Of a DNA stretch of 64,000 nt, positions 1,181 to 62,105 are shown one piece after another. Every line of letters starts with the position of its first letter. Position 1 is the stretch's first letter. The stretch comes from a virus. The notes beneath the pieces are model-generated. The model had not been told where the DNA came from. It saw only the letters and a list, made by a program, of their open reading frames with translations, and did no database searches. Where the stretch lies: positions 18,468-82,467 of IMG/VR virus record IMGVR_UViG_3300015078_000001. One strand, written 5' to 3'. A program made the position numbers and the translations under genes.

Positions 1181-1792
1181 TTAGTCTTTTGAAACTAGAC
1201 CGGCCTTCATATTACGAGAAGGAGGGGCACCAACGGTCACGTTATTCTGGGGAACATACTGAACCACGCCTTTTTCCCCGCCGCAGATGTATCCGGTTTG
1301 AAGGTCAATCATTTCGGTGATACCTATCTCACCTGTATCACCTTCACCTTCACCTTGATTGATTCCTATAGAGAAAGCAGCGGCTACTTTTGAACCACGA
1401 TCACCCGGAACAGGAGTCATCGGGCCGTCATCTTCGATATGACGCGGGCCTTCCTGATTGACATTGTATCGGGCTAGTTCGTTCTTTCCGCCAACGGTTC
1501 CGTAAGTCCCGCCTTGTCCGGAAAATGGACTAACCGACTTCACAGGGAAGTCTTTACCTTCAACACGATAAGGGTCTTTCTGATAATCAGACTGACCGAC
1601 TAGTTTATTTTTAGCGGCAAGATCGTCAGAAGTCTGGCCGTGACCAGGAGTGACTTTACCTTTCTTTCCGCCATGCGGCCCCGCATTAACGTCCTCTTCA
1701 GGTTTATAACCTGACGCACCTTTATATACGGGAGTTTTTGGGTCTACGCTGGAACCTTTACCGGCAACGGCAGGTTTAAATGGTGTAATCAT
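1181..1792 (-). CDS. Gly/Pro-rich hypothetical protein between terminase and portal
   Basis: 203-aa ORF, co-oriented and closely packed with its neighbours. Confidence 0.6.
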   Translation of the reverse strand: MITPFKPAVAGKGSSVDPKTPVYKGASGYKPEEDVNAGPHGGKKGKVTPGHGQTSDDLAAKNKLVGQSDYQKDPYRVEGKDFPVKSVSPFSGQGGTYGTVGGKNELARYNVNQEGPRHIEDDGPMTPVPGDRGSKVAAAFSIGINQGEGEGDTGEIGITEMIDLQTGYICGGEKGVVQYVPQNNVTVGAPPSRNMKAGLVSKD

Positions 1793-1806
1793 ATTGTCCT
1801 TTATAT

Positions 1807-3819
1807 TTATAAGGCTCCGAGTATCGCGTCGAGGCCGTGTTCGTTTCTATAATCTGGCTCAGGCTCTACTGAGACTTGCACTATTGGGTTTGGTAATTCT
1901 TCTGAAACTAATTCCATTTCAAATGTATCGGGATTGTGTCTTAAAACATATCCTTTGAACGGAGAAGCCATATTCTGAGAATACGAATCTCCGTATAGTT
2001 CACCAGTAGCGTCAAATACATTCTGCCAGTTACCATCTGACCGACTGTAGTTGTTTAACTGTTGTAGTTGGACTATCTGAGACATCCTCGGAGCATATCT
2101 TATTTGATAAGATATAACATCTGGAATATCCTCATGATGGTGCTTTCCGGTACATTTCTCAAATTCGTCGTACAATACATCTATATTGCCGCCAAGTAAA
2201 TGAGAGACGAAATAAAGCATATCGTTGGTTAGCCAGGGATGCAGTGCCTTAATTCTTGTTTGCTTGGCATCTTTACCCTGATCTGGTTTAACCCAGTCTA
2301 TTCTAGAACATACGTCATATATATCAGGAAGCTTGGTTTTGATAGCTTCTTGCTGGATAGCCATACTAAGGAATTCAGCACCAGCGGATTTTTCAACACC
2401 TATGATAAAGGGCTTATACTTAACAGCAAAGTCCACAACAGCTTTGGCTAACGCCGCAGGTTTGAACTTCGCCCGAATCATATCTATAACAATAGCCTGA
2501 TTCTTGGGATTCCAGATCATACATGATCCGGTAGTCCAGTCTCTGCCTTTTTCCGTACTATATGCAAAATCCCAGAACTGACAAATAGGGCCACTTGTAG
2601 GAATGATAGGATCGTTAAACGGTATAGTGTGCTTCATCATTAAAGCACGATCAAAAACTATATTACTAGCTGACCTTGGGTTCTGGTTCTGCTGGCCTTC
2701 GAATATCTTTTCGTTTTTATTATATTCGTACAAACACCATTCGTATGTATGAAGCTCGGGGAATAGAAGAGTACATCCTTCTTTTCCTGCTTCTGCGTAT
2801 GTAATAGGTCTGTTATCAGCTTCTAGTTTAGCGCGAACTTCGGGTTTGATTACTATACTCTTACCAATAAGAATACGTAATCCACTTTCTTCGTTATCTA
2901 TTAATTCCCAGTTATCACCAACAGTTCTTGTGATCTTACCAATATTCTTTTGAATATCTTCGCCGTACATATCTTCATCGGCGTATCTAGTTCCGATTTT
3001 ATCGGCATATCCGGTAGGAACGAGAGTTTTATGTTTCTGGCTATATCCGGTCGATATCTTTTTACACTGAGTGTCATTATTACTGTTCTGTTCAGAAACT
3101 GAATCATCCGCTTTAATAACTTCATAGTGACCACCTGTACCTGTAGCATCAATAGCATCGGCTCGCACCGTAGGTTCTTTTCTTTTAAGACCCTTCTTTA
3201 CCCACAATGCACACGGACATATAAGTTCATCAGCCTGTCCCGATTGTTTATGGTAGAAGCAGAATTCAGGGAAATAAAGGTTCATCAAACTAGGTTCATC
3301 ATCATTTATAATAAAATGACCCTTAGTTTCTCCAACGAATCCTTCTCCGAGTGGAAGAGTAGCAGTAAGATATAAAATACGTATATCAGGAAAGTTCAAT
3401 ATCCATTGAACAACATCATATCTATCCCAGGCTGATTTACCTGTACCTCTAGGGTATAATATAAGACGCTCTTTACGCCAGTCCTGCTGACCTATAGGTT
3501 TTGTCTTATCTTTCTTGACGAACATATCGCATACCCTGCGGTGTACGTGTTCACAAAAAAAGTTGTCCGTAATCGGTTTACCGACTCCGAAGACATCTGT
3601 ATCCCATAGAAAATATTTACCAAGGAACCATAAATCCTGCTCGCATCTGCGACGAACTTCTTTTACTAGTGGGTACGTGAGCAGGTGTTCTAGTCCATAC
3701 TCTCCCGCTTTTTTAACACTCTCGAAGATATCCGGACGAATTATATAGTCATATAAGTTTTCATCGGTTATATCAGTACCTTTACCTTCGTCCAGAAGTT
3801 CTTCGATATTTTGATCCAT
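1807..3819 (-). CDS. terL: Terminase large subunit
   Basis: Walker A-like LILYPRGTGKS, Walker B-like IKADD, C-terminal nuclease-like FWDFAYS and HHEDIPD; 670 aa; next to the portal. Confidence 0.9.
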   Translation of the reverse strand: MDQNIEELLDEGKGTDITDENLYDYIIRPDIFESVKKAGEYGLEHLLTYPLVKEVRRRCEQDLWFLGKYFLWDTDVFGVGKPITDNFFCEHVHRRVCDMFVKKDKTKPIGQQDWRKERLILYPRGTGKSAWDRYDVVQWILNFPDIRILYLTATLPLGEGFVGETKGHFIINDDEPSLMNLYFPEFCFYHKQSGQADELICPCALWVKKGLKRKEPTVRADAIDATGTGGHYEVIKADDSVSEQNSNNDTQCKKISTGYSQKHKTLVPTGYADKIGTRYADEDMYGEDIQKNIGKITRTVGDNWELIDNEESGLRILIGKSIVIKPEVRAKLEADNRPITYAEAGKEGCTLLFPELHTYEWCLYEYNKNEKIFEGQQNQNPRSASNIVFDRALMMKHTIPFNDPIIPTSGPICQFWDFAYSTEKGRDWTTGSCMIWNPKNQAIVIDMIRAKFKPAALAKAVVDFAVKYKPFIIGVEKSAGAEFLSMAIQQEAIKTKLPDIYDVCSRIDWVKPDQGKDAKQTRIKALHPWLTNDMLYFVSHLLGGNIDVLYDEFEKCTGKHHHEDIPDVISYQIRYAPRMSQIVQLQQLNNYSRSDGNWQNVFDATGELYGDSYSQNMASPFKGYVLRHNPDTFEMELVSEELPNPIVQVSVEPEPDYRNEHGLDAILGAL

Positions 3820-3980
3820 TAAGTAGTTCCGTCTGCCAGTTTCTTAACTGCTTTAGTCAGTCCTTCGGGAGAACTTGATTTAATTTTTAGTTTTATTTTT
3901 GTCTTGGATTTATCTGTTTTCTTAATCTTTTTTGCGTTAATTTTGGTACCTAAAATTCTTTTCGCCGCTGTACGCGCCAT
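3819..3980 (-). CDS. Small Lys-rich basic protein (MARTAAKRILGTK...)
   Basis: Hand-translated 53-aa ORF; its TAA overlaps the terminase ATG (TAATG). Confidence 0.6.
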   Translation of the reverse strand: MARTAAKRILGTKINAKKIKKTDKSKTKIKLKIKSSSPEGLTKAVKKLADGTT

Positions 3981-3987
3981 GCTACTC

Positions 3988-5213: not shown

Positions 5214-5711
5214 TTAGCCTCCTAGTTTAACTAATTCTGATAGTTCTTTCATCATCTCACTTCGGTGAGTTATATTGGTTACTAAGTCTGAAATTTCTAC
5301 CTGACTTACTTCTGAAAAATGTTTCTTATTTAATGTTTTAGTAAGATACGTAGCGCCGAAGGAAACAGGTTTTGCTTTTATAATCGATACTATTCGTATT
5401 GCCTCAGGATCGGAAAGAAGTTCTAATCTTCGTAAAGCAGTCTGCCTATCAACTAGCAAAGAAGCATCACATAATAATCCCTTTAGCTTTTCTACTAGCG
5501 ATATCTGCGGTACGATATAATCATATACTACGTGAACGTTATAGAAATTGCCTAATACGTTTACCAAACCATCGAAGGTCTGACTCATAAACGGCAATCC
5601 ATTTATAGTGACGGTATACATCTTGTCCATTTCCCGGACATCGAGTTTTCTACCGTCTATAACTATACTAGGATTTTCCTGCATTTTTAGCTTCCGATAA
5701 CGAGATCGCAA
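5214..5711 (-). CDS. Hypothetical protein
   Basis: ORF track; start uncertain. Confidence 0.5.
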   Translation of the reverse strand: MRSRYRKLKMQENPSIVIDGRKLDVREMDKMYTVTINGLPFMSQTFDGLVNVLGNFYNVHVVYDYIVPQISLVEKLKGLLCDASLLVDRQTALRRLELLSDPEAIRIVSIIKAKPVSFGATYLTKTLNKKHFSEVSQVEISDLVTNITHRSEMMKELSELVKLGG

Positions 5712-9182: not shown

Positions 9183-9595
9183 TTAAGGCTCCTTATTATT
9201 TTATTTATTGTACAGAGAGTCGTTCAGCTAGGCAGAATGTCTCGCTCTTGTCCATTTTCCGGACTTGTGAAGTTCACTAAAGGTAGTACCCGTCCACATT
9301 CTTTGCAAACAAGCCGACCTTCGGGATCGACTGAAAAGAGATGGAAGCACTCACCGTTCATCGTATTTGCTTGTTGTTCCATAATAGTTAATACTAAGGG
9401 GCTTAACGGCGCAATCACTATAGAGTACACGGCGACTTAAGTATCGCCCCTGTCGGCAGAACTGCTGAATCAGACTTATGTTGTCCCTGCCGAATTAAAA
9501 TTGTGCAGAAAGAGATATAAGGGTCTCTTACCGCGATATTACCCCGCCCGTATCCGCTCAGGTGCCAGAGCGCATCCATCAACTAGGATGGAAGA

Positions 9596-12832: not shown

Positions 12833-13153
12833 TTAAAGATTTTTAATCCGTTTTAGTATTGATTTTACTAATTCAAATTTTTCCTCCGACTTGAAAAAGT
12901 GTTTTGCTATTTCCTTGCTTGTCCAGCCTAAACGCCAGTAATGATATGCTATCTGATATTTCAACCTAGATTCAGTAAATATCTTATCCTGAAGCTTCTT
13001 ATCATTATATACCCAGTCAGGAGCTTTGGTCTTAGTGGGTTTACGTAAACTCTTAGTCTGGAAGCCCGGTATGTGGATTGTTTTATGTTTTACACCTTCC
13101 TGGGTTATATCAGATGCCGAGGCATCGTACATCGGAATCTCCGATCTGTCCAT
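12833..13153 (-). CDS. Putative HTH DNA-binding protein
   Basis: YQIAYHYWRLGWTSKEIAKHF resembles a sigma region-4/HTH motif. Confidence 0.4.
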   Translation of the reverse strand: MDRSEIPMYDASASDITQEGVKHKTIHIPGFQTKSLRKPTKTKAPDWVYNDKKLQDKIFTESRLKYQIAYHYWRLGWTSKEIAKHFFKSEEKFELVKSILKRIKNL

Positions 13154-13958
13154 TTTCCGGACATGAATCCTTCCAGGTACTTTGTAATAGAAACAGAGTA
13201 TGCTCCAATCGTTCTGCTAATTCTTTTGACATTTTATCTAAAGCATCTACTGTTGCCGGATTAGACATACAGTAATCTTCTATTATGGCTAAGTATTCAT
13301 CATTGGTACAGTAATCCTCCCACATTGTACCTGTTACACTTCTGTTCTTTGAGACTTTGGTAGATTCAATCCCCATAACTTCCTATCCTCCCATTTCAGA
13401 ATATCGTACTGTTCTACTACTTCCCACTTACCTTCATCCTCTTCTATTGATATAATACTTCCCGGTTTAACTTTACTATTGTAATCAAGCCAGGTTAATA
13501 TAAAGACGTTATTACCTTTTGTATTATCAGGATTTCTAACTAACCGAAGTTTTGTCTGTATTCGCTTCATACCAGATATCCCTTCTTGTACGGTCGTCCA
13601 TTTTCCGGACATCGTTCACTTGTTCTTCTGCCATTACTCTTTCCTGAGTCCAGTTAGGGCCGTACCAGGTATCAAACATACCTAATACAAATACTATATC
13701 AGATATAGGTCGCCCACATATTATGGCGTTTCTAAAAGCATTTACAGCATTCACTATTAATTCAGCATCTTTAGGGTCTTTCACATATCCCTTAACTCCG
13801 ACATGGTTGGCTGTAAGTATAAGATTATCTCCATAATATCTAGATTCCGGAGTTTCGGGAACATCTTTCTTTAAATCTCCGTTCTCTAATTTCCATAATG
13901 GTTCTTCTTTATACGCTATCCATTTACCAGACATCAATTGTTCTGCTTTTATCTCCAT
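13110..13958 (-). CDS. Three overlapping small hypothetical genes (13110-13376, 13334-13612, 13536-13958)
   Basis: ORF track; co-oriented and overlapping. Confidence 0.45.
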
Positions 13959-14149: not shown

Positions 14150-14178
14150 ATTATACACAGCCCACTAGTGCATGTCAA
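14150..14178 (-). promoter_or_regulatory. Consensus sigma70-type promoter driving the leftward operon
   Basis: TTGACA-17 nt-TATAAT, exact consensus on the minus strand. Confidence 0.85.
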
Positions 14179-15841: not shown

Positions 15842-16016
15842 ATAGTAAACACGGTGAAGTGATTACCGTGTTAGGCTGCTAAGTTCTTTCAAGTCTTAGG
15901 GAAATAGGTTCGCTATGATGTCCATTTACTGGACATGATAGGGAATCTACGGATATCCCAACGGGAGTAAACCCTAAAAAAATCAGGACATACGCAAGTA
16001 TGTGAAGTAAATTAAC

Positions 16017-16421
16017 ATGGCTAACCCGATTAACCCGACAACGGGCAAAGAATACACTATCGCGGAACTTATGGCGAAGGTCGCCGAACTTGAGGCCCAG
16101 GCCGCCGCGAAGAACACGCTTTTCATGGGTGTTTCCGAAGAGACCGGCGTTATCTGCTTGTACGGTCTTCAGAAATTCCCCGTTTCCCTTCACCGGGAGC
16201 AATGGGAACGTGTCATCTCTCCCGAAACCCAGGCACTGGTCAAAGGATTCATCTCGAATCCCGATGTGATCACACTGACGCCTGGCAAAGCAAGCGCCGA
16301 AGATGCCAAAAAGAACGCGGCTACTCTGCGCAAGGCAAGTCAGAAACAGCTCAACGGATTGCCGATTGTACGCCGGCAGTCCGCTGAAACCAAAGCGAAG
16401 TTTGCTAAGGCATCGGCGTAG
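16017..16421 (+). CDS. Early protein, coiled coil plus VSExxGVxxYGLxxFPVxLxxEQW family
   Basis: Motif GVSEETGVICLYGLQKFPVSLHREQWERV. Confidence 0.7.
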   Translation: MANPINPTTGKEYTIAELMAKVAELEAQAAAKNTLFMGVSEETGVICLYGLQKFPVSLHREQWERVISPETQALVKGFISNPDVITLTPGKASAEDAKKNAATLRKASQKQLNGLPIVRRQSAETKAKFAKASA

Positions 16422-16716: not shown

Positions 16717-17826
16717 CATGACGGAGCATATACTTCGCTGTATGCTTCGATGATATTACTCTAAATGGAGAAAACATGGAATATACAATAAGGGAATCTC
16801 AGCCTATGACGGATGATACTGTTACTTGTCCGCATTGTGGTGCAATAACCTGTATTGCAGTACCCTGCCCACGTTGCGGGAAAATCAGTTAGTCCAGTAA
16901 ATGGACATGGCCGATATCCTTCGGGGTATCGGCTTTCTTTTTGTCTGGAGTATTCGCTTTTTGTACGCCTGGCGGAAAACGCGCCAGGATGCCCTATAAA
17001 CGCTCGACAGCATTTTGAGCATGTACCCTGCGTGGATCAATGCAAACGGGCCTGTATCGGCCACGGAGGCATCAAAAACCCGTATCCTGGTGACCGATTG
17101 AACCCCTGCCGTTCACGTTCCGCCGAATGACCGCTAGAATTTCCCCTGAATTTCCATCCTACCTATACTCTATAAGTCAAGGTATTTATTCAAAATACCA
17201 TATAAAAATCCTCAAAATACTACAAATTGTATACAAAATATAGTTTTTTGTATATGTTTTATAATATATTCGATGCTATTATATAGCCCTGGCATAGTAA
17301 TAGCCGTGCCCTGGCCGGCGAGCCGATGTCCGGAAAATGGACATAAACCGAATCGAATCAGCGGTTTAGCGGCGATGCCGCACCGTCCTGAGCAATTTCA
17401 GGGCCAAAATCTGTCAAGCCCCAAACGAAAAAAAATTTCTCGTTTGTTTTCAACGGTTTACAGCCGAAAATTTTTTGCGGCTCCGTTGTTTGCAGTCGGT
17501 CGTGCGACAATGGTGTTGCGCCAAAGCCCGTGTATAGCAGGGCAGGGAAGGAAAGATGGCACAACCAATACGGGTAAGAGTAACTAAGCCGCTAATGAAG
17601 TCTACCTGGAATCCTGGTAAGATGAACAGGAAAATAAAGGTAAATGCGGCTAAGAACAAACTTAATGAGTTTGGGAATAGGGAGGCTGTAAAATGAATAC
17701 TAAAGTACTAGCCTTTGAAGAACGTAAATCAAGGTTTTTACTATACACTATGGAAAAACCTTATAAGTTTGTATGGGCGGAAAGTTTAGGATGTTGGATG
17801 GCGTTTAGGTTAGCAAACTTACCAGT

Positions 17827-18880: not shown

Positions 18881-18994
18881 AGAAGGGAAGCCTTGAGAGG
18901 TAACGACTGCCGGGAGACCGAAAACGATACTTCTCCCCTTCCTATGAGCAATTATGTCCAGAAAATGGACAGATTGTTGATAGGAGAGGAAAAT

Positions 18995-19279
18995 ATGGCT
19001 AAAATTACAATTAGTGAAGGCCTGACCTGGCTTAAAACCCTGGAGAAACGTCATGCAGAACTTGTAAGATTGCGTGATAATAATTCAAAATCAGTATCGT
19101 CGAACTATAACGGTGCTGTTACTACTCAGGTACCTGAGTATAATGCCAAAGAACTTGATAAGCGTATCACATTGCTTGCCAGAGAACTAAGGCTTTGTGA
19201 AACAGCTATCAAGAAAGCTAACGCTGTTACAGTTTTGGAATATCACCAGGATGATAATGTTCTCGGTGAATTGGTTTAA
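18995..19279 (+). CDS. Helical protein resembling DIP1984/DUF6847-like family
   Basis: MAKITISEGL...IKKANAVTVL pattern; all-helical; GGAGAGGA RBS. Confidence 0.45.
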   Translation: MAKITISEGLTWLKTLEKRHAELVRLRDNNSKSVSSNYNGAVTTQVPEYNAKELDKRITLLARELRLCETAIKKANAVTVLEYHQDDNVLGELV

Positions 19280-22051: not shown

Positions 22052-22096
22052 TCTTGACGTAGTGTCCATTTACTGGACATTACGATGAGGATTATT

Positions 22097-43049: not shown

Positions 43050-43082
43050 AATTCATGTCCATTTTCCGGACATAGGAGTAAT

Positions 43083-43340: not shown

Positions 43341-44347
43341 TAAACATCTCGATTGACTTTGAAAGCGCGTCATCTGTTGATCTATCCGTATGCGGCTTAG
43401 ATAGGTATGTTACAGATAAATCAACTAAAATTTTGATGATGGCGTATGCTTTTGAGGATGAATCTGTACAGATATGGGAACCGCACAAAGAGAAATTTCC
43501 TGACCGAGTATTGAAAGCTTTCTATGATTCTGAAGTAACTATATTTGGGTGGAATGTAAGCTTTGAACGGCAGATACTTGCATATTGTTTAGGTCATGAA
43601 CTTCCGTATGTTAAATTCAAAGATTCTATGGTCATGGCCCGGTATATGGCTTTACCAGGGTCGTTAGATGAATGCGGAAGTGTGTTAGGAATTGATACTA
43701 GCCTTCGGAAGATGCAGAATTCTGATAGATTGAAAGATATGTTTTGCCTACCAGCTAAAGAAGGTGGAGAAGAAACGCTTTTCGGTATATCTGAAGATGT
43801 GTTTCGTACACATGAAACTAATCCTGTTGAATGGCAGGATTTTGTCTCATACTGCAAACAAGACGTAGTTGCAGAACGTGCTATTAAGAACAGATTAAAG
43901 AACTTCCCTCTCCCTGAACATGAATGGGAGGCCTGGTACTTAGATCAGGAGATAAATGAGCGGGGAATAGCCGTAGATATGGAATTAGTTGAAGGTGGTA
44001 GCTATATTGCGGGTATAGATAAGCAAAGACAATTAGATAAAATACAATCTATTACTAAACTTGATAATCCTAACAGCCGAGATAAAATTCTTCAATGGTT
44101 AAGAGACCGTGGCTACCCTTTTCATGAATTAGGAAAAGCTTTCGTAGCTAGAGCTTTGGCTGAGAAAAATGAAATGACTGACGAAGCTAAAGATATTCTT
44201 TTATTAAGACAAAAATCAGCTAAAACTTCATCACAAAAACTTATCAATATAGCTAATCAAGTTAGTAATGACGGACGTTTACGCTTTCAATATAGTTTTA
44301 TGGGTGCGAGCCGAACCGGAAGATTTTCATCAGGAAGTGGAGAATGA
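43337..44347 (+). CDS. polA: DNA polymerase family A, N-terminal part (3'-5' exonuclease plus thumb)
   Basis: ISIDFES (ExoI), WNVSFER (ExoII), YCKQDVVAE (ExoIII); ends GASRTGRFSSGSGE. Confidence 0.88.
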   Translation: MINISIDFESASSVDLSVCGLDRYVTDKSTKILMMAYAFEDESVQIWEPHKEKFPDRVLKAFYDSEVTIFGWNVSFERQILAYCLGHELPYVKFKDSMVMARYMALPGSLDECGSVLGIDTSLRKMQNSDRLKDMFCLPAKEGGEETLFGISEDVFRTHETNPVEWQDFVSYCKQDVVAERAIKNRLKNFPLPEHEWEAWYLDQEINERGIAVDMELVEGGSYIAGIDKQRQLDKIQSITKLDNPNSRDKILQWLRDRGYPFHELGKAFVARALAEKNEMTDEAKDILLLRQKSAKTSSQKLINIANQVSNDGRLRFQYSFMGASRTGRFSSGSGE

Positions 44348-44532
44348 TACTTTACGCAGCAACTTATTACGAAACTGATGGGTATACCTATGGTGTAGAA
44401 ACAGTTCTAGCAATTTGTGATAGCAAAAGTAAAGCAGATGAAGTGTGTTTAAAAGATAACGAAGTTTATCCCGCAAGAGATTTAACCTATTATGAGGTTA
44501 AAGAATTCGAGATTAACCAACTGTGGGAATAA
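44344..44532 (+). CDS. Small ORF inserted within the polymerase gene
   Basis: 62 aa; ATGA overlap with the upstream stop and overlap with the downstream GTG start. Confidence 0.65.
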   Translation: MILYAATYYETDGYTYGVETVLAICDSKSKADEVCLKDNEVYPARDLTYYEVKEFEINQLWE

Positions 44533-45566
44533 ATGTTCAAAATTTAGTTCGACCAGGAAGTGAAGTATCTAAAAACTTAGAAGAAGCTATCTCTCTTGTG
44601 AAGGCAAAAGACCTTGAAGGTATTCAGAAAAGATTTAAAACTGAGCCGTTAGATTTAGTGGGAAGTCTTATCCGATCAGTTTTTGTCGCACCTAAAGGTA
44701 AAAAGCTAGTTATATGCGACTTATCGGCGGTTGAGAATAGAGTTTTAGCTTATATTTGCGACGCACCTTCTATCTTAAAAGTATTTCAAGATAAACTTGA
44801 TCCGTATGTATATTTTGCTGTTGATCTTTATAACGAACCATACGAAGTTTTGTTAAAAGATAAACAGAAAAGACAAAATGCTAAACCAGCAGTTTTGGGC
44901 GCAGGATACGGATTGTCTGGTGGAGAACAGATTACTTCCGATAATGGCGATATCGTTTTCACCGGACTCATGCAATATGGGCGTTCACTAGGAGTGGAGA
45001 TATCTAGGGAACTAGCTCACAAATCTGTAGAAGTATTTAGAGAGAAACATCATGAAGTGGTTAGTTGCTGGTATGCTTTAGAAAAAGCAGCTACTAAGTG
45101 CATTCTTACTAGACAGCCACAAATAGTCAATATAGTTAAATTTAGTATGGTAGAAGATGTTATGTGCATAACTCTTCCTAGTGGCAGAGATTTACACTAC
45201 GTTTCTCCTAGAATAATAGACGATGTTTGGCCTAATGGTAGAAAGAAAAAATCCATAGAGATTTTCGGTATGGATTTAGTTACTCATGTTTGGAACAGAA
45301 CTAGAACTTATGGTGCCAAAATTTTGGAAAATATTGACCAAGCTATATCGAGAGATTTGTTAGTAGAATCCATGTTTAATGCCCGAAAAATGGGATTTGA
45401 TATAGTTATGCATTCGCACGATGAGTTGGTAACAGAGGTAGAAAAAGATTCAAAACTAGGGATTGACCAACTACGTTCTTGTATGATACAATCTCCTATA
45501 TGGAGTAACTCTAATTTAATTTTAGACGCCGCTGGATTTGAATCAAAAATTTACAGAAAAGAGTGA
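44523..45566 (+). CDS. polA: DNA polymerase family A, C-terminal part (palm/fingers)
   Basis: INVQNL, motif A ICDLSAVENRVLA, motif B RQNAKPAVLGAGYG, motif C MHSHDELV. Confidence 0.9.
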   Translation: MGINVQNLVRPGSEVSKNLEEAISLVKAKDLEGIQKRFKTEPLDLVGSLIRSVFVAPKGKKLVICDLSAVENRVLAYICDAPSILKVFQDKLDPYVYFAVDLYNEPYEVLLKDKQKRQNAKPAVLGAGYGLSGGEQITSDNGDIVFTGLMQYGRSLGVEISRELAHKSVEVFREKHHEVVSCWYALEKAATKCILTRQPQIVNIVKFSMVEDVMCITLPSGRDLHYVSPRIIDDVWPNGRKKKSIEIFGMDLVTHVWNRTRTYGAKILENIDQAISRDLLVESMFNARKMGFDIVMHSHDELVTEVEKDSKLGIDQLRSCMIQSPIWSNSNLILDAAGFESKIYRKE

Positions 45567-45567
45567 T

Positions 45568-47311
45568 ATGAAACTTAAAAGTTTAATCGGAAAAACCATA
45601 GATAAACTAGAACTTAACACACAATCAGACGAATTTACCATCCATTTCACAGACGGATTGTATATTAAATTCGGAGTAGAAGGAGATTGTTGCTCCCATA
45701 GCTGGATTGAACACTTAACAGCCCCTAATGACGTACATGGTGCGGTAATAACGGATGTATTTGAAGGCGGTAGTGCGGCCTGGGATAACCATGAATGTGT
45801 AGATGGAAAAGATAAATACGGATATGTTACACACGTATGTGGTCATGACTGTCTACAGGTATATAATACTCAGTTTGATACGGATAGAGGGTCGATTATA
45901 TTAGAATATAGAAACGATTCTAATGGCTACTATGGTGGTAATTTAACACTTATTGACACTAATTTGCCTAAAAATGACGAAGATGACTGGAGTTGGAATT
46001 ATATCTCTTACTAATTCTGCCTATGTCCATTTACCGGACATAGAGGAGGAGAAAATGAGAAAAAGCTTAGTATTGTTATTTTGTTTAATACTTGTTATAT
46101 GTGGTTGTAATTCAGTAGGATACAAGCAATTCTATGTAAGGTCACACGGTAATGGGTACAGTGTATCTTGTCATCATTCTGGTGGAGACGTAGATATAAC
46201 TAAATCATTTGTTAGCCCTAAAGAAGCTCAGGATTTGGCTGAAAAATTAAATAAAGAAGTCGGAGATAACTGGGCCGCAAAGGACACGAATTAATATGAG
46301 AAAAGAAGTTCCGATAACAGATACTATAGTAGAAGCTACTTGCGATCTATGCGGCGATATACAAGAGTTTGTGGGTGACGTAGAAAAATGTCCGGGGTGT
46401 AAAAGAGATTTTTGCCGAAAAAATACTTGCTATAAATCCCTGTATCCATTAGACTATGTGTTCTCCTATCCTAACGCACTATGCTCCATATGCTATCCAA
46501 AAATAGATATGTTTATAGACAAAGCCAGGCAACTTCAAAAAGAATTAGACGACAAAATTTCTGCATTAAAAACTAATATAAAACAGGTGCTTAATTATGT
46601 CAAGTGAACCTAATGAACATATAAATAAATACGAGAAAGTAGAATTTGATTGCGGTACTACAGCTACTTTAACTCATATGTCTCCGCAGATGGCCCAACC
46701 TGTAGACCATGATTTCCTTGTAGGTGTAACTATAAATGCAGAACACAGCGGAGGACTTCGTATTCATAACGGCGTTTATACGGGTGAAGTACAAATGCTT
46801 TTTTATTTACGTAATATACCCGCTATTATACATATGCTACAGAGAATTTATAAATCGGGTATGGGTACACATTAATGAGTAAACTCAGCAGATGTACCAG
46901 ATGTGACAGAACTTCAGATGACGTTGAAACTATTCTAGACCCCGACGAGACATTTGAATCTTCTTTATGCTATTTTTGCAGAGTAGATTGGCAGAATTTG
47001 TTCGAAGAGTTTATAAACAATGAAATTTAGTTTGCTCGGAACCAAAGCCTCGTTATCTGGGAGAGGACTCACCCTTTGGTTTCGTGGAGGCGAAAATGAG
47101 TAAAGAACTAGAGTTACTACAAGAACTTGAAAAGCATCTACGAAATACTATACTAGAGGGCGAATTTGTACTTTTAAACACCGAAATTTTTATGTATGAT
47201 CCACCCAATTATGAAGAGTTTCGCGTAGAATCTTGTTATATCGGCGGATTAGAAAGTATCTTAGAGGAATTAGATGAAATACGACAGCAAAAAGAACCGC
47301 TGGAAAACTGA
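45568..47311 (+). CDS. Cluster of small hypothetical genes
   Basis: 45568-46014 (GDCCSHSW...NDSNGYYGG), 46055-46294 (lipoprotein-like), 46296-46607, 46597-46875. Confidence 0.55.
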
Positions 47312-47852
47312 CCGAAAAGTATTTGTAGCGAGTGACCATCATATAGGTCACAAGAATATCATAGAATATGACGGCAGACCGTTCAAAGATGTCCAGGAAA
47401 TGGACGAAATTCTGGTATTAAACCACAATAGTGTAGTATCTCCCAATGATGTAGTTATATTTGCCGGAGATTTTGCGTTAGGTAGTCTGGAACATGCTAG
47501 TAAGATAAGAGATAGATTGAACGGTGATATTTACATTACCTGGGGAAACCATGACGGTCACGCTCGTAACCTTCCCTGGAAGTCTTCAAGTGAGAGAATG
47601 GTAATAAAAGTACAAGGGTATCCTTGTATGGTTATATCTCACTATGCTCAGAGAACATGGTTAAAACAAAGTAAAGGGTATTGGCATCTGTATGGCCATT
47701 CTCACGGTAGTTTACCAGAAGATGGCTCGTTGTCTTTCGATATAGGGGTGAATAGTCACAACTACTATCCCTGGAGTATGGAAGAAATAGCAAAGAAAAT
47801 GAATACAAAACAGATAAAAATAGTCGATCATCACAAAGGAGATAAAGAATGA
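47274..47852 (+). CDS. Calcineurin-like metallophosphoesterase
   Basis: SDHHIGH, GDFA, GNHD and HLYGHSH. Confidence 0.9.
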   Translation: MKYDSKKNRWKTDRKVFVASDHHIGHKNIIEYDGRPFKDVQEMDEILVLNHNSVVSPNDVVIFAGDFALGSLEHASKIRDRLNGDIYITWGNHDGHARNLPWKSSSERMVIKVQGYPCMVISHYAQRTWLKQSKGYWHLYGHSHGSLPEDGSLSFDIGVNSHNYYPWSMEEIAKKMNTKQIKIVDHHKGDKE

Positions 47853-50250: not shown

Positions 50251-51183
50251 CTATTGATTCGCTTTTCGACAATAATTCCATATAATACCCGTCAAAGCTC
50301 CTAAATCACATCCACTATTAACAGAACTATACAGTGCAAGTTCACGAAGTGTGCTTGCCAGTGTGTCGTTCCCATACTTTAGTAATTGAAATCTCATAGA
50401 ACTGGATATCATAGTTCTGAGAGCGTTAGAATCAGAAGCTTTTGCTTTCAACAAGGCTTGAGACGCTAATGTCCATTTTCCGGACATGCAAGACGCTACG
50501 ATAGATTTCAATTCAGGGTCTGAATCTACATTCTGAACACATTCATCGGCAGGTAGTCCATTAGCATATAGCTCAGTACTACGAATGATATCTCTGGGCG
50601 CGGTCATACCTACAGATTGAATAGCATCCAGAATTTTATCTGAAGTCTCAAAACTATCCATCTTTATTAGAACTTTATCTACCAGAATTTGTATATCGTC
50701 TGAGTCTAAACCCTTTAGGTTGAACGACATACAACGATTACGTAACGCAGGTATCAGTTTTTGAGGATCGGTAGTAGTCACTATGAAAATAGTAGGGCTG
50801 TTCTTCTTCTCCATAGGTTCTAGCAATACATTCTGAGCGGCGTCAGTAAGTTGTTGAGCTTCGTTGAGAATGATTACCCGATAATTACCTACTAAGGGTA
50901 GATAGTCTGTACGAGACACAAGTTCTCTGATGTCGTCTATGCCCCTGGTATCGGCGGCATTAATACTCAATATTTCAGGTTCATCATCAAAATCTTTCCC
51001 CTGTACGAGTTTAGCTACGATGCCCGCTAATGTCGTTTTGCCCGTCCCAGAGGCACCGGAGAACATAAACGCGGTGGGAATGTTGCCGGACTCAATCTGG
51101 GCCTGTAAAGCCGCTACAACGTCTTTATTGCCGATTACCTGCGAGAAATTCTGGGGGCGGAGTTCGATAGTGAGATTTTGCAT
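50251..51183 (-). CDS. dnaX: DnaX (tau/gamma)-like clamp-loader AAA+ ATPase
   Basis: LRPQNFSQVIG, GASGTGKTT, INAADTRGIDDIREL, RVIILNEAQ and RNRC. Confidence 0.85.
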   Translation of the reverse strand: MQNLTIELRPQNFSQVIGNKDVVAALQAQIESGNIPTAFMFSGASGTGKTTLAGIVAKLVQGKDFDDEPEILSINAADTRGIDDIRELVSRTDYLPLVGNYRVIILNEAQQLTDAAQNVLLEPMEKKNSPTIFIVTTTDPQKLIPALRNRCMSFNLKGLDSDDIQILVDKVLIKMDSFETSDKILDAIQSVGMTAPRDIIRSTELYANGLPADECVQNVDSDPELKSIVASCMSGKWTLASQALLKAKASDSNALRTMISSSMRFQLLKYGNDTLASTLRELALYSSVNSGCDLGALTGIIWNYCRKANQ

Positions 51184-51188
51184 GAATT

Positions 51189-51238
51189 TCATTATAGCAC
51201 GGTCTGACGGTTTTGCAGCCGTTTGAGCGTGGTATAAT
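51189..51238. promoter_or_regulatory. Back-to-back extended -10 promoters
   Basis: TGcTATAAT on the minus strand (-10 at 51191-51196) and TGgTATAAT on the plus strand (-10 at 51233-51238). Confidence 0.7.
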
Positions 51239-51651
51239 GAACCAATGTCCATTTTCCGGACACGAGAGGCGATATGAAAATATACGTTATGTATGTAGAA
51301 TATGATTATGAAGGGTATAGCGACCCATCTTTAACCACCGACAGAGATAAAGCTGTAAAATTTATTAACTTTAACATGGGTGATGGTATGACTGTAGATG
51401 TATATGATACTATTCCCGATGAAGATATAAAACTTATTAAAAGTTACTTCCGTCGGGAAGAAGACAAATTAATAGAAGAAATGTTATGATATTAGTTTCT
51501 GACGAATGGTTAGAACGTATGGCTAAGTTAGAAGAAAATTCTGATGTATCGGCAGGTATACCGTGTGACTGTCCCTGCCACGATGATACGTGTACGGCAT
51601 ATAAAATTCTTAAAGATAGCATACCATTAGGTAAATGTAGTTGTTGTGAAT

Positions 51652-53689: not shown

Positions 53690-54019
53690 TCTTGCCGATG
53701 TCCGGAAAATGGACATCGTGGAGGATTATGAAAACCAATGGAACTTGAATATTTAGTATTGACAAAAGACGAAGCCTGTGATATTCTGAACGGTGATAGC
53801 GAATACAAATCCATTTTGGAAGAATTTATAGGCAATGGCAGATGGTCTCTACATTATAGACTGGTATTCGAAAAAGATGGTATGTTTTACGAGACTAGTT
53901 ATAGCCGTGGTGCAACAGAAAGTCAGGACGAACAGCCGTTTGAATACCAAGATGAAGTAAAATGTAAGAGAGTTTACCCGTACCAGAAAACAACAACTGA
54001 TTACAAATAAGGAGAACAT

Positions 54020-54865
54020 TTGTCAGAATTACCCGTTATACAAGTAGATAAAGGAATTGCAGAACCTACGTTTACACCTAACATAGATATCACCATGTCG
54101 TCTGGTATAGGAAAGCTTTCAGCAGCTATTGCTAAAGCAAGACCGAACTTTGACGCTATTAAAAAGAATCAGACTAACCCCTTTTATCATAAGAAATATA
54201 GCGATATTTCTGAGTTGATAGGTGCTACCGCTTTGCCGTTAGCTGAACAAGAAGTAACTATCTTTCAGTTTCCCGGTAAAGTAATAGGAAAAGATGTCTT
54301 CGTAACTACTATTGTCGCTCATTCATCCGGAGAGTTCATCCAGTCTATTGCGTCGGGGCCAGGAGAACAAAAGAACAAAGACGGCAATAAGTTTGATATG
54401 CAGACGGTGGGCATTGCTATTACGTATCTTCGCCGGTATTCTCTTGGGGCTATGTTGAATGTAGCTGCGGACGACGACGATGCCAATGGTCTGGCAACTA
54501 ATAGAGCAGAACCCGCTAAGTCTGTCATTCTGCCTACTATACAACAGGCTCGTATAGACGGCCCTAAAGGCGGGGCTTTAACAGCAACCGGGGTATCTTC
54601 TACTGAAGCACCTAAAGCTATTCCCGAGAAAGAAGAGAACCCGCTTCCTACTCCTGAACAGCGTACTCAGTTGTTTGATAGAATTAAGGCTTTGAAATTA
54701 GACGGAAGAGTAGTCAAAGGCCATATCCTCAGAGCTACAGGTAAAGCTTTCACCGAAGTTCCGTTTAAGGAATTTGAAGAATTAGTCCAGAAAATGGAAA
54801 AGACCGCAGAACAAGGCCAGGAAGCAATCCAGGAACTTGTAAGTAAGAAAGATGAAAAAGATTAG
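54020..54865 (+). CDS. erf: ERF-family ssDNA annealing protein
   Basis: KKNQTNPFYHKKYS, HSSGEFI and ITYLRRYSL..M..ADDDDAN. Confidence 0.88.
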   Translation: MSELPVIQVDKGIAEPTFTPNIDITMSSGIGKLSAAIAKARPNFDAIKKNQTNPFYHKKYSDISELIGATALPLAEQEVTIFQFPGKVIGKDVFVTTIVAHSSGEFIQSIASGPGEQKNKDGNKFDMQTVGIAITYLRRYSLGAMLNVAADDDDANGLATNRAEPAKSVILPTIQQARIDGPKGGALTATGVSSTEAPKAIPEKEENPLPTPEQRTQLFDRIKALKLDGRVVKGHILRATGKAFTEVPFKEFEELVQKMEKTAEQGQEAIQELVSKKDEKD

Positions 54866-55255
54866 GTAGTATACTGCCTAGCAAGCTGGTGGCCTGTAAA
54901 TATACAAATAGCGGGGGAATAGACCTTGTTCTAAGCACCACCAGCTTTTTAATTTTGTCCGGAAAATGGACATGAAAGGAACATATGGGAACTTTATTGT
55001 CTCCGGCATGTACAGAAGAACTACATTTAGCTTGCTCAGGAGAATGTGACGAAGATGAGTATACCAATTCATTGACAGGTTTAGCGGAAGCTTGCGAATG
55101 TAAATGCCATTGGCCGAGGAGAGAAGACTAAATGACTACCGAAATCTGCCATTTTTACTACACTCATATGTCGTGTTTTATGATTGGATTTGTTGGTGGT
55201 TTGATTATTTTTAACGGAGTAGATTTTGTAAAGTATTTACTTTGGAAAAGGAAAC

Positions 55256-57952: not shown

Positions 57953-58090
57953 ATTAGAGGCTGGTAATATAAATAAACACACTAAAGAATTTAAAACGTA
58001 TGAAAAAGCTAAACCTTATTTTGAGTCAGAATGCGCTGACGAAAGTAATACCCATGTCCAGTTAATGGACGTGATTGAGGAGAAAAATAA

Positions 58091-59046: not shown

Positions 59047-60038
59047 AACCTGGCTTATATACAAATATACTCGAAGAACAATACCATGCCGATGAAGCGG
59101 TATCTAGCCACGGTCTAAAGGCTCTATCCCGTAGTCCGCTACACTACTGGGCTTATTATAAGAATCCTGAAAGACCGCCTCAGAAGGAAACTCCCGCTCT
59201 CAAGATAGGTTCGGCTATCCATAAAGCCATCTTAGAACCCGATAAATTCGAAAAAGAGTACGTACAAGAGCCGCAACTTACTGATTACAAAGGAGTTCTG
59301 GATAAATTAGAGGATTATAAGGAAAGAGCTAAGACACTAGGTTTGCCTGTTTCAGGAACGAAGGGAGTGTTAAAGTCTAAAATCCTACAGGCAGAAACGC
59401 TCCAGGATGCCCCAGGAAGCGTTTTCTGGGATGACATAGTGGGTACCATCACCCAGGGTCGTATCAGCCTCTCTAAAGCCGAATACAGAGCATGTAGGGG
59501 TATCTCTTATCGCGTTCATAAGCATCCTGCGGCTAGTAAGATATTTTCATACGGTACTCCCGAAACGTCCATTTTCTGGACAGACCCTGATACAGGTGTC
59601 AGTTGTCGTGGTAGAATAGACTGGATGCAACCCGATACTGAATATGTTGATTACCGTACTATAGTAGATATTAAATCTACTCAGAACGCTAGTCCTGAAT
59701 CTTTCCAAAGAGATGTATTTAAGTACGGGTACCATATACAGGCTGCTATGTATTGGGATGGTATGACAGCTTTAGGATATTATCCCCAAAGCTTTGTATT
59801 CTCTGCATGGGAAAAGAAACCGCCTTTTGCTACCGCTCTTTACTATATGACAGAAGAGTTATTAGAAGCTGGTAGGAAAGAATATAAGAAGTTACTCAAA
59901 ATATATGCCGAATGTCTAAAGACTGATACCTGGCCTGGGTATAGTAATAGTATAGAGCCTTTACTATTACCTGACTGGTATGGTAAAACTGAGATATCAG
60001 AGGAAGTAGAGAGCGATGACTGGTTATCTGAACTGTAA
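59043..60038 (+). CDS. RecE/exonuclease VIII-like PD-(D/E)XK nuclease with SAP-like insertion
   Basis: GSAIHKAILEP, ETSIFWTD, CRGRIDW, IVDIKST and YHIQAAMY. Confidence 0.88.
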   Translation: MKPGLYTNILEEQYHADEAVSSHGLKALSRSPLHYWAYYKNPERPPQKETPALKIGSAIHKAILEPDKFEKEYVQEPQLTDYKGVLDKLEDYKERAKTLGLPVSGTKGVLKSKILQAETLQDAPGSVFWDDIVGTITQGRISLSKAEYRACRGISYRVHKHPAASKIFSYGTPETSIFWTDPDTGVSCRGRIDWMQPDTEYVDYRTIVDIKSTQNASPESFQRDVFKYGYHIQAAMYWDGMTALGYYPQSFVFSAWEKKPPFATALYYMTEELLEAGRKEYKKLLKIYAECLKTDTWPGYSNSIEPLLLPDWYGKTEISEEVESDDWLSEL

Positions 60039-60151
60039 GCATAAATGGTTTGATCTGGCAGAACCGATACAAGGTAAGTACGCAAGGGTTTGTCTATCTT
60101 GTAACTGGTATCAGTATAGAGATGATTTAAGTATTATATGGAAGGATTTTA

Positions 60152-61402
60152 GTGGAAGAGATTAAAAACACAAAGAAAGATATAGATCAGATAATTCTTG
60201 GAAAGAGGATTATAGGATTTCATAAGATATTTGCCGACATAACAGGGAATATTAATTCAGCTTTATTCCTATCTCAGGCATACTTCTGGAGCGATAAAGG
60301 TAAGAAAAAGAAGGGGTGGTTCTATAAAACCCAAAAAGACTGGAACGATGAAACAGGGTTAACTCGATATCAGCAGGAATACTGCCGTAAAGTCCTTCGA
60401 GAAAAGGGAATTCTTCTTGAGAAGAAAGAAGGGAATCCGTATCAGTTATTCTTCAAAATAGATTTTGATCGAGTCAGGCAGTTGATTTTAGAGGTAGAAG
60501 AAACCGAGGACGAAGAGGAAACCGATGAAAACTCCGATACGACAGGCCTAGGTTGCAGCCCAACCCCTAGCCTAGACAGTCGAGAAACTAGCAAGGCCTT
60601 TGCAGACGAACCCCTGCCTGAGGGTGCAGGCGAACCCCTTACTCTATATACAGAGAGTACCAGAGAAAAAGCAGAGAACACTCTCATAAAGCCCAAGACG
60701 AGTTCAAAATCTATTTTGCCTGTATGTCCGGAAAATGGACATGAGCCTATTCTCAACAACGGGGTTTCTACTCAAGACAAGCAAAAAGCGTTTAGTACAT
60801 TTACTCCCGCTGTATCGCAGAAGGAACTCATACCGGCAAAGCTCTTCCCTCGTATCTGTAGAGAGAAAGGTCTTACTATAGAATCAGATAAGTTCTGGAA
60901 AGATGATATAAAGAAACTTACCTTAGCTTATGGGGGTACTAGTGTAGTAGATGCATTCCAAAGATGGGTAGATATACAAGTAGGAGATATAAAGTATCCT
61001 GTAGGTAAGTTCTGTAAAGTAGCTTCTTCTTATATCCAAAACTTAACAGAAGCTAAGAAAGAACATCCTGATCTTCAGGCTTTATGTATTTCCCTATACA
61101 AGCTAGGTGATAATCCTTTTACAGGAAAGTATAAATCTTTTCTTAATACTTTATTAGACAGTTATAAGTTTCAGGAAATAGAAAAAGCTTATAAAGACTT
61201 TATCAACGGTAAAGATGATTATGATATGAAGTTTGCAGCTAAGAACTTTACAGAAGGTGCTGCTGAAACTATTATACTTACTAACAGGGAAGAATCAGAA
61301 CGCAAACGTTTACAACTATACCAAATGAATGAGGCTGCTAGGATGGAAAGAGAAGCTATAGAATCTGAACCTATACCTGAAACAGTAAAGGAGGAGTTAT
61401 GA
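60152..61402 (+). CDS. Phage replication initiator (N-terminal wHTH)
   Basis: ALFLSQAYFW...GWFYKTQKDW.DETGLTRYQQ pattern followed by an acidic linker. Confidence 0.7.
   Translation: MEEIKNTKKDIDQIILGKRIIGFHKIFADITGNINSALFLSQAYFWSDKGKKKKGWFYKTQKDWNDETGLTRYQQEYCRKVLREKGILLEKKEGNPYQLFFKIDFDRVRQLILEVEETEDEEETDENSDTTGLGCSPTPSLDSRETSKAFADEPLPEGAGEPLTLYTESTREKAENTLIKPKTSSKSILPVCPENGHEPILNNGVSTQDKQKAFSTFTPAVSQKELIPAKLFPRICREKGLTIESDKFWKDDIKKLTLAYGGTSVVDAFQRWVDIQVGDIKYPVGKFCKVASSYIQNLTEAKKEHPDLQALCISLYKLGDNPFTGKYKSFLNTLLDSYKFQEIEKAYKDFINGKDDYDMKFAAKNFTEGAAETIILTNREESERKRLQLYQMNEAARMEREAIESEPIPETVKEEL
60554..60639 (+). repeat. Three iteron-like repeats TGCAGnnnAACCCCT
   Basis: 60554-60568, 60601-60615 and 60625-60639. 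Confidence 0.7.
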
Positions 61403-61461
61403 TTAAGTTTATAAAAAATCTTGATCCTTTTGTACAGGGGGTGTTAACCGGGTCTATAACT

Positions 61462-61490
61462 TTGATACTTAGCACAGTAATTAGTATAAT
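61462..61490 (+). promoter_or_regulatory. sigma70-type promoter
   Basis: TTGATA-17 nt-TATAAT. Confidence 0.7.
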
Positions 61491-61511
61491 AATTTGTCAA
61501 TGGTTACTAAA

Positions 61512-62105
61512 ATGAAAGTACTTATAGGCTGTGAGTTCTCAGGTATAGTAAGAGAAGCTTTTAAAGAAAGAGGTCACGATGCATGGAGTTGTGACTTAGT
61601 ACCTACTGAGATACCTGGTAATCATATACAGGATGATATACTAAATCATTTAGATAAAGGATGGGATTTAGCTATCTTCCATCCTCCCTGTACAGATATA
61701 GCGTGTAGTGGGGCCAGATGGTTTGAACAAAAGAGAAAAGACGGTAGACAACAAGCAGGTATAGATTTCTTTATGAAACTTACAGAGGCTCCTATACCTA
61801 AAATAGCTATAGAGAATCCTATCGGGGTGATGTCGTCCATTTACCGGACACCCGATCAGATTATACAACCGTGGATGTTCGGAGAACCTTTCCAGAAGTC
61901 TACCTGTTTGTGGTTAAAGAATCTGCCACTATTGATTCCTACTAACATAGTAGATAAAGGTGAATTTATTACTTATAAGAGTGGTAAGAAGATGCCTAAA
62001 TGGTATGCAGATGCATGGAAATTATCTAAAGAAGAAAGGGCAAAACTTCGTAATCGTACTTTTAAAGGAATAGCGGTTGAGGGTTTTGCTAATCAATGGG
62101 GTTGA
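61512..62105 (+). CDS. DNA cytosine methyltransferase-like protein
   Basis: MKVLIGCEFSG...SCD...FHPPCT (PC catalytic motif), ENPIG. Confidence 0.8.
   Translation: MKVLIGCEFSGIVREAFKERGHDAWSCDLVPTEIPGNHIQDDILNHLDKGWDLAIFHPPCTDIACSGARWFEQKRKDGRQQAGIDFFMKLTEAPIPKIAIENPIGVMSSIYRTPDQIIQPWMFGEPFQKSTCLWLKNLPLLIPTNIVDKGEFITYKSGKKMPKWYADAWKLSKEERAKLRNRTFKGIAVEGFANQWG

Follow-up and report, generated by a model that had tools for sequence, protein, structure and literature searches.

A dispersed 17-bp dyad in a large tailed phage as a probable array of docking sites for a DNA-binding protein

Several phages of lytic type are on record as carrying dyad repeats scattered over their genomes, the textbook case being that of the Cluster O mycobacteriophages. 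In Corndog and its relatives a 17-bp dyad, TGTTCGG-NNN-CCGAACA, is present in 34 copies to which no function has been assigned; a third of the copies lie in genes, they follow no orientation rule, and a dimeric protein was predicted by the authors (PMC4351075). The stoperators of Cluster A mycobacteriophages (L5 gp71, Bxb1 gp69) are instead asymmetric sites of 13-14 bp that serve a monomeric immunity repressor in temperate phages, and their orientation follows the direction of transcription (PMC9283540, PMC6550527). Arrays of the ParB family include the OB sites of KorB on plasmid RK2 and the NBS (Noc-binding) sites on the Bacillus chromosome, which are symmetric palindromes of 13-16 bp whose readers carry an N-terminal CTPase domain that permits sliding or spreading (PMC11790492, PMC8429893, PMC7383237). 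Here we analyse a dispersed 17-mer, TGTCC-ATTTWCY-GGACA, in a stretch of 64,000 nucleotides (the window) that spans positions 18468-82467 of the 109,031-bp IMG/VR record IMGVR_UViG_3300015078_000001. The record, which we used as reference (G000), originates from a soil metagenome and has a CheckV completeness of 72%. Coordinates are those of the window unless G000 is named.

The exact pattern TGTCCATTTWCYGGACA was found 20 times in the window, against 0.00 in 100 dinucleotide-preserving shuffles. When up to two mismatches were allowed, 38 sites were recovered between 1515 and 61850 (0.06 expected), on both strands and at a density of one per 1.7 kb. An earlier reading of the sequence (the original prediction) had listed 37 copies in both orientations and had proposed counting them against a shuffled genome; the observation holds. 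The whole record carries 51 sites. In an unbiased scan of 5-mer inverted repeats with spacers of 0 to 12 nt, TGTCC-N7-GGACA ranked first (28 against 0.06 expected), and the motif is the top inverted repeat of a distant relative, G001, as well as of G000. The core of the 17-mer is GTCC-ATTTWCY-GGAC, and hardly any copy departs from its GTCC/GGAC arms. In 35 of the 51 sites positions 6 and 12 are an A.C mismatch, even though one more base pair would be gained with T at position 12, which argues that the sequence is selected and not the length of the stem.

A codon-usage gene caller placed 22 of the 51 copies in genes and 29 between genes or at gene edges, an intergenic excess (p = 3e-14) given that about 12% of the genome is non-coding. 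The position tables of both groups match, including the asymmetric spacer ATTT(T/A)C(C/T); as observed earlier, this spacer is kept in either orientation. Coding copies occupy all three frames and both orientations. In three genomes GGAAAAT is found on the sense strand of coding copies in 36 cases against 9, a 4:1 bias; since the corresponding sub-words show the same 2- to 9-fold skew elsewhere on coding strands, this bias is attributable to codon usage. Among intergenic copies on plus-strand operons, about 14 have the same orientation as transcription and 13 the opposite one. Along the genome, orientation runs in blocks, mostly plus at 6-50 kb and mostly minus at 51-98 kb. The spacing of the sites is more even than random in G000 (coefficient of variation, CV, 0.70; p = 0.003) and in another distant relative, G004 (CV 0.58; p = 0.0003), with a weaker trend in G001 (CV 0.77; p = 0.11).

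The G000 array, with its 51 copies (22 in coding and 29 in intergenic sequence) and single promoter overlap, fits the Cluster O-type description, which is the closest known case. Both arrays consist of more than 30 dispersed copies of a 17-bp site with dyad symmetry in a phage that does not look temperate; in both, a third to half of the copies are in genes and few are at promoters, and the central T/A-rich asymmetry follows no orientation rule relative to transcription. The two differ in consensus and in architecture, which is 7+3+7 in Cluster O but 5-bp arms around a conserved asymmetric 7-nt spacer here, and the phage lineages and hosts are unrelated. Furthermore, the G000 motif goes beyond Cluster O in that its sites are built into hairpins that lock Shine-Dalgarno (SD) sequences, and in the comparative evidence described below: synonymous constraint, flips, lineage versions and a candidate reader, that is, a protein that would recognise the sites.

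The other two precedents agree in part. As in stoperator arrays, tens of copies of one short site are dispersed over the genome, and sites and reader appear to change together from one related phage to the next; however, stoperators are mostly intergenic, while here many sites are in genes, the arms form a dyad and either orientation is found. The sites thus depart from the L5/Bxb1 precedent put forward in the original prediction in the roughly even split of orientations, the orthologous flips and the dyad arms. No integrase or repressor turned up among about 50 proteins scanned, in a non-exhaustive search of a proteome from a record that is about 72% complete. In the KorB and Noc arrays a helix-turn-helix dimer reads many dispersed palindromes and silences at a distance or organises DNA, as may be the case here, but our candidate protein has no CTPase domain by Pfam, and the site measures 17 bp with an asymmetric centre.

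To follow the sites through evolution we compared G000 with related genomes. G000 is a large tailed phage that is remote from isolates (its best TerL match, Tunturiibacter phage Tunturi_3, is 27% identical), and neither phage isolates nor IMG/VR contained close relatives at the DNA level. Relatives were retrieved through protein homologues and exact-match scanning of IMG/VR. L040, L041 and L042 are 82-89% identical to G000 in the exonuclease and 72-86% identical in DNA; exonuclease identity falls to 68% in L043, 60% in L044 and 54% in L045. More distant are G001 (complete with terminal repeats, 106.5 kb, GC 45%), G004 (GC 55%), G005 (GC 60%), L199, L206, L207 and L209. Sites were ascertained in G000 only and read in L040-L044. 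Codons for the same amino acid differed in 5 of 52 cases (9.6%) within the 15-nt core, but in 2625 of 5791 (45%) outside it. The effect is about five-fold, and its Fisher p of 5e-8 is optimistic since the relatives are not independent. Synonymous conservation of the in-gene copies, which had been proposed as a check and whose absence would have counted against the idea, is thus observed. Orthologous sites are also kept while their flanks diverge in the exonuclease, ERF, clamp-loader, initiator and primase-helicase genes and at several gene junctions. These comparisons show that the sites are under purifying selection at the nucleotide level.

Orthologous sites can also be inverted. The spacer of the site at 51246 reads ATTTTCC in G000 and L040 but AGAAAAT in L042. 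A second flip was found in the linker of a small sigma-like gene, at G000 87839-87853 (69372-69386 in window numbering, outside the window) and L041:15338-15352: at the same codons G000 and L199 read GTC CAT TTT CCG GAC (VHFPD), whereas L041 reads GTC CAG AAA ATG GAC (VQKMD). As read from these sequences, the DNA signal is retained here at the expense of the peptide, and the comparisons show that the orientation of the sites is free.

Moreover, as the alignments show, the sites of a phage lineage change their sequence together. L043, whose proteins are 68-71% identical to those of G000, carries TTCC-ATTTTCC-GGAA throughout. This arm switch has a cost in amino-acid changes (T to V, K or N): at the orthologous exonuclease site ETSIFWTD becomes EVSIYWKD and at the clamp site STSIFQT becomes NNSIFRN, and the initiator site has switched too. 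G004, with 37 copies, and L202 carry a version TTCCA-TTATC-TGGAA. L045 lacks the GTCC motif and has a 17-bp dyad of its own, AGTTCAC-TWA-GTGAACT, in 5 copies over 21 kb (4483, 10927, 14545, 17235 and 20433 of that contig), mostly within replication genes. In L206 (1147-15950) the half-sites differ in their arms, with GTTCA on one side and GGAC on the other, which suggests a different mode of reading for each half. The 17-bp frame is common to all lineage versions, whose arms occupy positions 2-6 and 12-16. That sites are uniform within a genome but switch between genomes is predicted by a single reader acting in trans, and not by a mere stem.

Taken together, these sequence comparisons argue that the 17-mer is most likely an array of docking sites on double-stranded DNA for a phage-encoded, sequence-specific and probably dimeric protein. 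We hold with somewhat greater confidence that the sites are read by a protein, and on duplex DNA. The motif could alternatively be an RNA hairpin signal on transcripts, for instance one recognised by the phage RNase III, or by a translational repressor where genes adjoin, and it is at the junctions that this idea finds its evidence. Almost all of the 44 intergenic gaps (18-400 nt) in the plus-strand block fold into hairpins whose lower stem pairs an anti-SD sequence (TCCTGC) with the GGAGG of the next gene, and in 17 of the 44 the 17-mer forms the upper stem-loop, in either orientation. At 18 junction copies, the three base pairs that flank the motif are formed in 50 of 54 instances, with many pair types that covary and with G.U pairs on the sense strand. 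In G001 and G004, intergenic copies often lie 8-14 nt before start codons, and an RNase III is indeed encoded by the phage.

However, the remaining 27 junction hairpins have arbitrary, covarying stem tops with a tetraloop, and work without the motif. Flanking pairs at coding copies are formed in only 18 of 57 instances (p = 2e-11 against junctions); since coding copies lack the extra stem that junction copies possess, the motif is a separate module that can do without a long hairpin and was reused as a hairpin top, as the original prediction had it when it described the motif as secondarily built into these hairpins. An RNA signal would also have to exist as two conserved loops, AUUUUCC and GGAAAAU, because both orientations are found on the same transcripts, and orthologous sites flip between them. 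The A.C mismatch is retained although an A-T pair would lengthen the stem, and the 4:1 orientation bias of coding copies equals the background word usage of the coding strand. We consider a signal on RNA improbable, and the flips, the synonymous constraint and the concerted changes in specificity side with the preference already expressed in the original prediction for an orientation-independent signal at the DNA level. Mimicry of an anticodon loop, with its 5-bp stem and 7-nt loop, was also rejected, since most coding copies show the opposite loop on the sense strand.

A hairpin could also form on single-stranded or cruciform DNA and be read together with its loop, as a site of nicking, priming or recombination initiation, in which case orientation would merely decide which strand bears the active form. 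A conserved asymmetric loop with free orientation would suit such a strand-specific reader, as would the arrangement of orientations in blocks, and the phage has ERF, exonuclease, Endo VII and primase-helicase genes. Yet a stem of 5 bp that closes a 7-nt loop is hardly stable, the majority variant avoids a sixth pair, coding copies have no flanking stem that would aid extrusion, and no HUH or IS200-like protein came up in a non-exhaustive search; we see little likelihood in this explanation.

The motif also has an identical counterpart in bacteria. In three genomes of Planococcaceae, TGTCCATTTTCCGGACA, identical to the phage 17-mer, lies between an extended -10 element of the TGTCATACT type and the SD of a TetR_N/TetR_C_8 gene (L073:1718-1734, a Planococcus halocryophilus contig; L097:489-505; L113). 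Variants such as GTCCATTTTTCGGAC and GTCCACAGTTTGGAC are found in most orthologous TetR loci at 63% identity or above (L169-L186). This copy is probably the operator of the regulator itself, and the identity makes it plausible that an operator of exactly such form serves a helix-turn-helix dimer. The likeness extends to the asymmetric spacer and to conserved boundaries. The bacterial operator differs from the phage sites in being single in each genome, fixed in orientation and adjacent to a TetR gene.

Might the phage sites mimic this operator, so that a host TetR repressor of the Planococcaceae type occupies the phage genome? In addition to the identity and the orthologous variants, the GC content of G000 (39.5%) and its strong GGAGG SD sequences suit a Bacillales host, and the TetR_N domain (PF00440) was not found in G000, G001, G004 or G005, with controls positive. 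On the other side, the motif family is found in phages of GC 31% to 60%, which implies very different hosts, and close phage relatives differ in motif version. The TetR orthologue is present in only 27 of 151 sampled genomes of the order to which Planococcaceae belong. A scan of 185,579 species genomes for the motif returned singletons only, and Planococcaceae genomes showed no enrichment beyond their single copies. Occupancy by a host repressor therefore appears very unlikely to us. Least credible of all is a selfish or recombinogenic repeat spread by copying (of the MITE or REP type, miniature inverted-repeat transposable element or repetitive extragenic palindrome, or an inversion or module-shuffling site): near-identical copies are indeed many at gene junctions and spacers have been inverted in evolution, but, unlike REP/RAYT or MITE-like repeats, the 22 coding copies of G000 are in-frame and free of indels, at least 20 of them sit in conserved genes that are unrelated to each other, all three frames are used, and they must so have arisen by point mutation under selection, while sites hold orthologous positions as their flanks diverge and no rearrangement breakpoints occur at sites between relatives in the 20 kb aligned.

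Several phage proteins were considered as possible readers of the array. The three candidates named in the original prediction (12833-13153, 16017-16421 and 25358-25714) found no support, with no Pfam match and no conservation signal. About 40 further proteins of the window were compared with Pfam and PHROGs and revealed no DNA-binding domain except a weak Sigma70_r4 match in a 159-amino-acid protein. Neither TetR nor the ParB N-terminal domain nor any other classical domain was detected in the conserved small proteins; four of them were compared with PDB sequences without a match, and a search of the ESM Atlas returned hypothetical viral clusters only. The O-like initiator was rejected as the reader because in G001, which has the motif, no more of the initiator than its C-terminal domain was found. 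The copy in the initiator linker is, moreover, solitary; unlike in lambda O, there is no tandem cluster of iterons.

A more promising candidate is a 228-amino-acid protein encoded 3.9 kb past the right end of the window (G000 86375-87061). Its gene lies directly 3' of the sliding-clamp gene in every relative, with the small sigma-like gene one to four genes downstream. Its AF2 model has a mean predicted local distance difference test (pLDDT) score of 74. Compared with 48,161 PDB representatives, the model best matched the DNA-binding part of Spo0J/ParB (residues 98-208, Z 7.2 over 109 residues), and it matched the DNA-binding domain of KorB on operator DNA with a Z of 5.2; among AFDB Swiss-Prot models, Noc and ParB dominate (probability 0.6-0.85, E about 0.5). 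A homodimer is predicted, with an interface score (ipSAE) of 0.65, while the best of three controls scored 0.00; contacts agree between runs to at least 94%, and pLDDT is at least 80. Of 30 proteins solved as pairs of one chain, 20 attained this mark, as did 1 of 23 that were solved as single chains. A putative recognition helix (87-100, after a helix-turn motif) is outside the predicted interface. Members of the family number 686 clusters at 50% identity, 177 of them with E <1e-30 (homologues P0082-P0231), and in one, P0206, an N-terminal FtsK-gamma DNA-binding domain is fused.

The first residues of the putative helix vary with the arms of the site. Residues 87-88 are RS or RA in lineages with GTCC arms (G000, L041/L042, L044, L199, G001/L209 and G005), KS in those with TTCC arms (L043 and, independently, G004/L202) and RT in those with GTTC arms (L045, L206 and, weakly, L207). 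This association has a Fisher p of 0.015 over 11 lineages, uncorrected for phylogeny. In ParB and Noc, R173, at the start of the recognition helix, is one of the four residues that set specificity (PMC7383237). We tentatively propose the 228-amino-acid protein as the reader of the 17-mer, at slightly less than even chances.

Several observations weigh against these proposals. The fold match of the candidate (Z below 8, Foldseek E about 0.5) is weak, below the level that can be trusted for helical folds, and the protein has no Pfam match, nor does its family profile find a ParB link among PDB sequences. L040 is an apparent exception, with GTCC sites and KG at 87-88 in a protein assigned to that contig by equal length only, and a strict arginine-guanine and lysine-thymine code was rejected on this account. 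A single column in 268 is consistent with the partition of lineages, no more than the background expects, since control proteins have 2 such columns in about 1200, and L200 carries a divergent homologue but no clear site array in 20 kb. More generally, the evidence is entirely comparative and the function is inferred from the distribution of the sites alone. A symmetric dimer also leaves the consistently asymmetric spacer unexplained, as it does the unequal arms of L206.

The distribution of the sites relative to promoters helps to narrow the function. The original prediction had placed one site at a predicted transcription start (51245), and this was corroborated: the site at 51246-51262 (+, exact) starts 7 nt after the extended -10 element TGGTATAAT (51230-51238). 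The layout is conserved in L040 and L042, with the site itself inverted in L042. It is, however, the sole site of G000 that adjoins a recognisable promoter, and most sites consequently cannot regulate initiation. The classical phage-wide repressor that had been suggested is thereby reduced to at most a side function. In G004, three sites lie 4-5 nt upstream of extended -10 elements of the TGTGGTACAAT type, and three or four sites in all adjoin extended -10 elements. A general promoter role was rejected, with sigma70-like matches not above the shuffled background; so was TGGACA as a -35 element, a resemblance without a consistent -10 partner, and a terminator role, as no T-run follows the sites. 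The promoter at 51230 (+) is one of a back-to-back pair of extended -10 promoters, the other being TGCTATAAT at 51199 (-), with the motif at the plus-strand start; the pair sits between the clamp-loader gene and a small gene with a tRNA cluster.

A picture compatible with these data is the following. A phage-encoded dimer would recognise about 50 evenly spread sites on duplex DNA in either orientation and irrespective of local context, be it a junction, a coding sequence or a promoter, and the sites would co-evolve with this one trans-acting reader. The reader may be the clamp-adjacent 228-amino-acid homodimer, with its weak resemblance to the DNA-binding fold of ParB, Noc and KorB and no CTPase domain. 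Occupancy throughout the genome could mark or organise the phage DNA and block or time transcription at gene boundaries, as in Noc/KorB or stoperator arrays. At 51246, at the start of a conserved sigma70-type promoter, the site would act as an ordinary operator, and at gene junctions its own dyad would be used as the top of SD-sequestering RNA hairpins. A bolder extension, to which we give a rather small chance, is that the 228-amino-acid family is a CTPase-less relative of ParB and Noc that reads a dispersed 17-bp dyad code, and that the array is a general device for marking phage DNA and not a repressor system. Changes in the residues that open the recognition helix would then let this code evolve. 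The sites could be orientation-free enhancer or loading sites that couple the sliding clamp and the phage sigma factor to late transcription or, alternatively, a scaffold for self-marking or compaction.

In the window, structural and packaging genes occupy 1-14 kb on the minus strand, and a long early and replication block occupies 19-64 kb on the plus strand. Recognisable genes of G000 include a split family A DNA polymerase, a clamp loader, an RNA ligase, ERF, SSB, an exonuclease, an O-like initiator, RNase III, Endo VII, a primase-helicase and eight tRNAs. The polymerase (43337-45566) consists of open reading frames (ORFs) of 336 and 347 amino acids, interrupted by a 62-amino-acid ORF (44344-44532) with a weak DUF7336 match. 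Towards the left end, sites with one mismatch lie within the coding sequences 1181-1792(-) (1515-1531, -) and 5214-5684(-) (5624-5640, +), and another with one mismatch is intergenic in the minus-strand late block (9249-9265, +). Two sites cover start codons of minus-strand ORFs, as had been reported: the exact site at 13147-13163 (+), in the overlap of 12833-13153(-) and 13110-13376(-), and that at 13595-13611 (+, one mismatch), within the coding sequence 13536-13958(-) and over the start of the ORF 13334-13612(-). The same coding sequence contains a degenerate copy with two mismatches (13917-13933, +).

The 5-kb ORF-poor region at 14.4-19 kb holds six motif copies and is bordered by a perfect sigma70 consensus promoter (TTGACA-17-TATAAT, 14150-14178, -) that faces the minus-strand gene block. 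The exact site at 15919-15935 (+), a near-perfect palindrome variant with spacer ATTTACT, and the exact site at 17327-17343 (-) are in this non-coding switch region; the site at 16891-16907 (-, one mismatch), also in non-coding sequence, adjoins a terminator-like hairpin (16909-16934). A further exact site (18955-18971, -) lies upstream of the gene 18995-19279.

In the gaps at 19279-58100, hairpins between anti-SD and GGAGG are near-universal, and the RNase III gene (26414-27085; Ribonuclease_3 and dsrm domains) is located among them; junction hairpins and phage RNase III may together form a self-contained system of mRNA processing and translation timing. The SD of the RNase III gene is itself locked by a hairpin topped by a site with one mismatch (26378-26394, +). 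Exact plus-strand sites form the tops of junction hairpins at 19516-19532 (locking the SD of gene 19550), 22063-22079 (5' of gene 22097), 22816-22832 (5' of gene 22858), 28878-28894, 29791-29807, 40210-40226 and 46024-46040, as does one with a single mismatch at 31130-31146 (+). Tops in the opposite orientation are found at 32740-32756 (-, one mismatch) and 33727-33743 (-, exact). Other minus-strand tops are those at 23034-23050 (two mismatches, 3' of gene 22858-23022), 33920-33936 (two compensating end changes, A..T), 41125-41141 (two compensating end changes, C..G) and 53699-53715 (exact, conserved in L040 and L042). The exact site at 24918-24934 (+) is in a hairpin 3' of gene 24559-24903, and that at 43056-43072 (+) is immediately 5' of the SD of gene 43083. 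Upstream of the small gene 54985, an exact site (54956-54972, -) is conserved in L040 and L042, and before gene 58091 a variant with a TTAAC spacer (58055-58071, -) is shared by L040, L041 and L042.

Among copies in genes, the placements given earlier for the exonuclease, the initiator and the VQEMDE peptide were recovered. The exonuclease copy (59566-59582, +; ETSIFWTD) has a 15-nt core that is identical in 5 relatives, down to 60% amino-acid identity. The exact copy in the linker of the O-like initiator (60725-60741, -; CPENGH) is kept in L040-L042 and has the TTCC version in L043, and VQEMDE is encoded in a 192-amino-acid protein (coding sequence 47274-47852) at 47390-47406 (-, two mismatches). 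The exact copy in the clamp-loader gene 50251-51252(-) (50470-50486, +) is kept in L040 and L042 and is of GTCC type in G004, while a degenerate copy in the ERF recombinase gene (54784-54800, -; LVQKMEK) is conserved in 5 of 6 relatives. The remaining sites are an exact copy within the 1066-amino-acid gene 35401-38601 (37608-37624, -) and copies with one mismatch in or beside the small ORF 40515-40682 (40557-40573, -) and within the coding sequence 61500-62105 (61834-61850, +).

This group of phages constitutes a clean natural experiment, in which the sites can be traced across relatives whose protein identity ranges from 89% to about 30%, with at least four versions of the motif, flips inside genes and amino-acid replacements by which the DNA signal was preserved. 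With one concrete candidate reader, whose residues at the start of the putative recognition helix track the version of the site, the question of what reads the array becomes directly testable. As these comparisons indicate, phage coding sequences can bear a second code at the DNA level that is strong enough to override the protein sequence.

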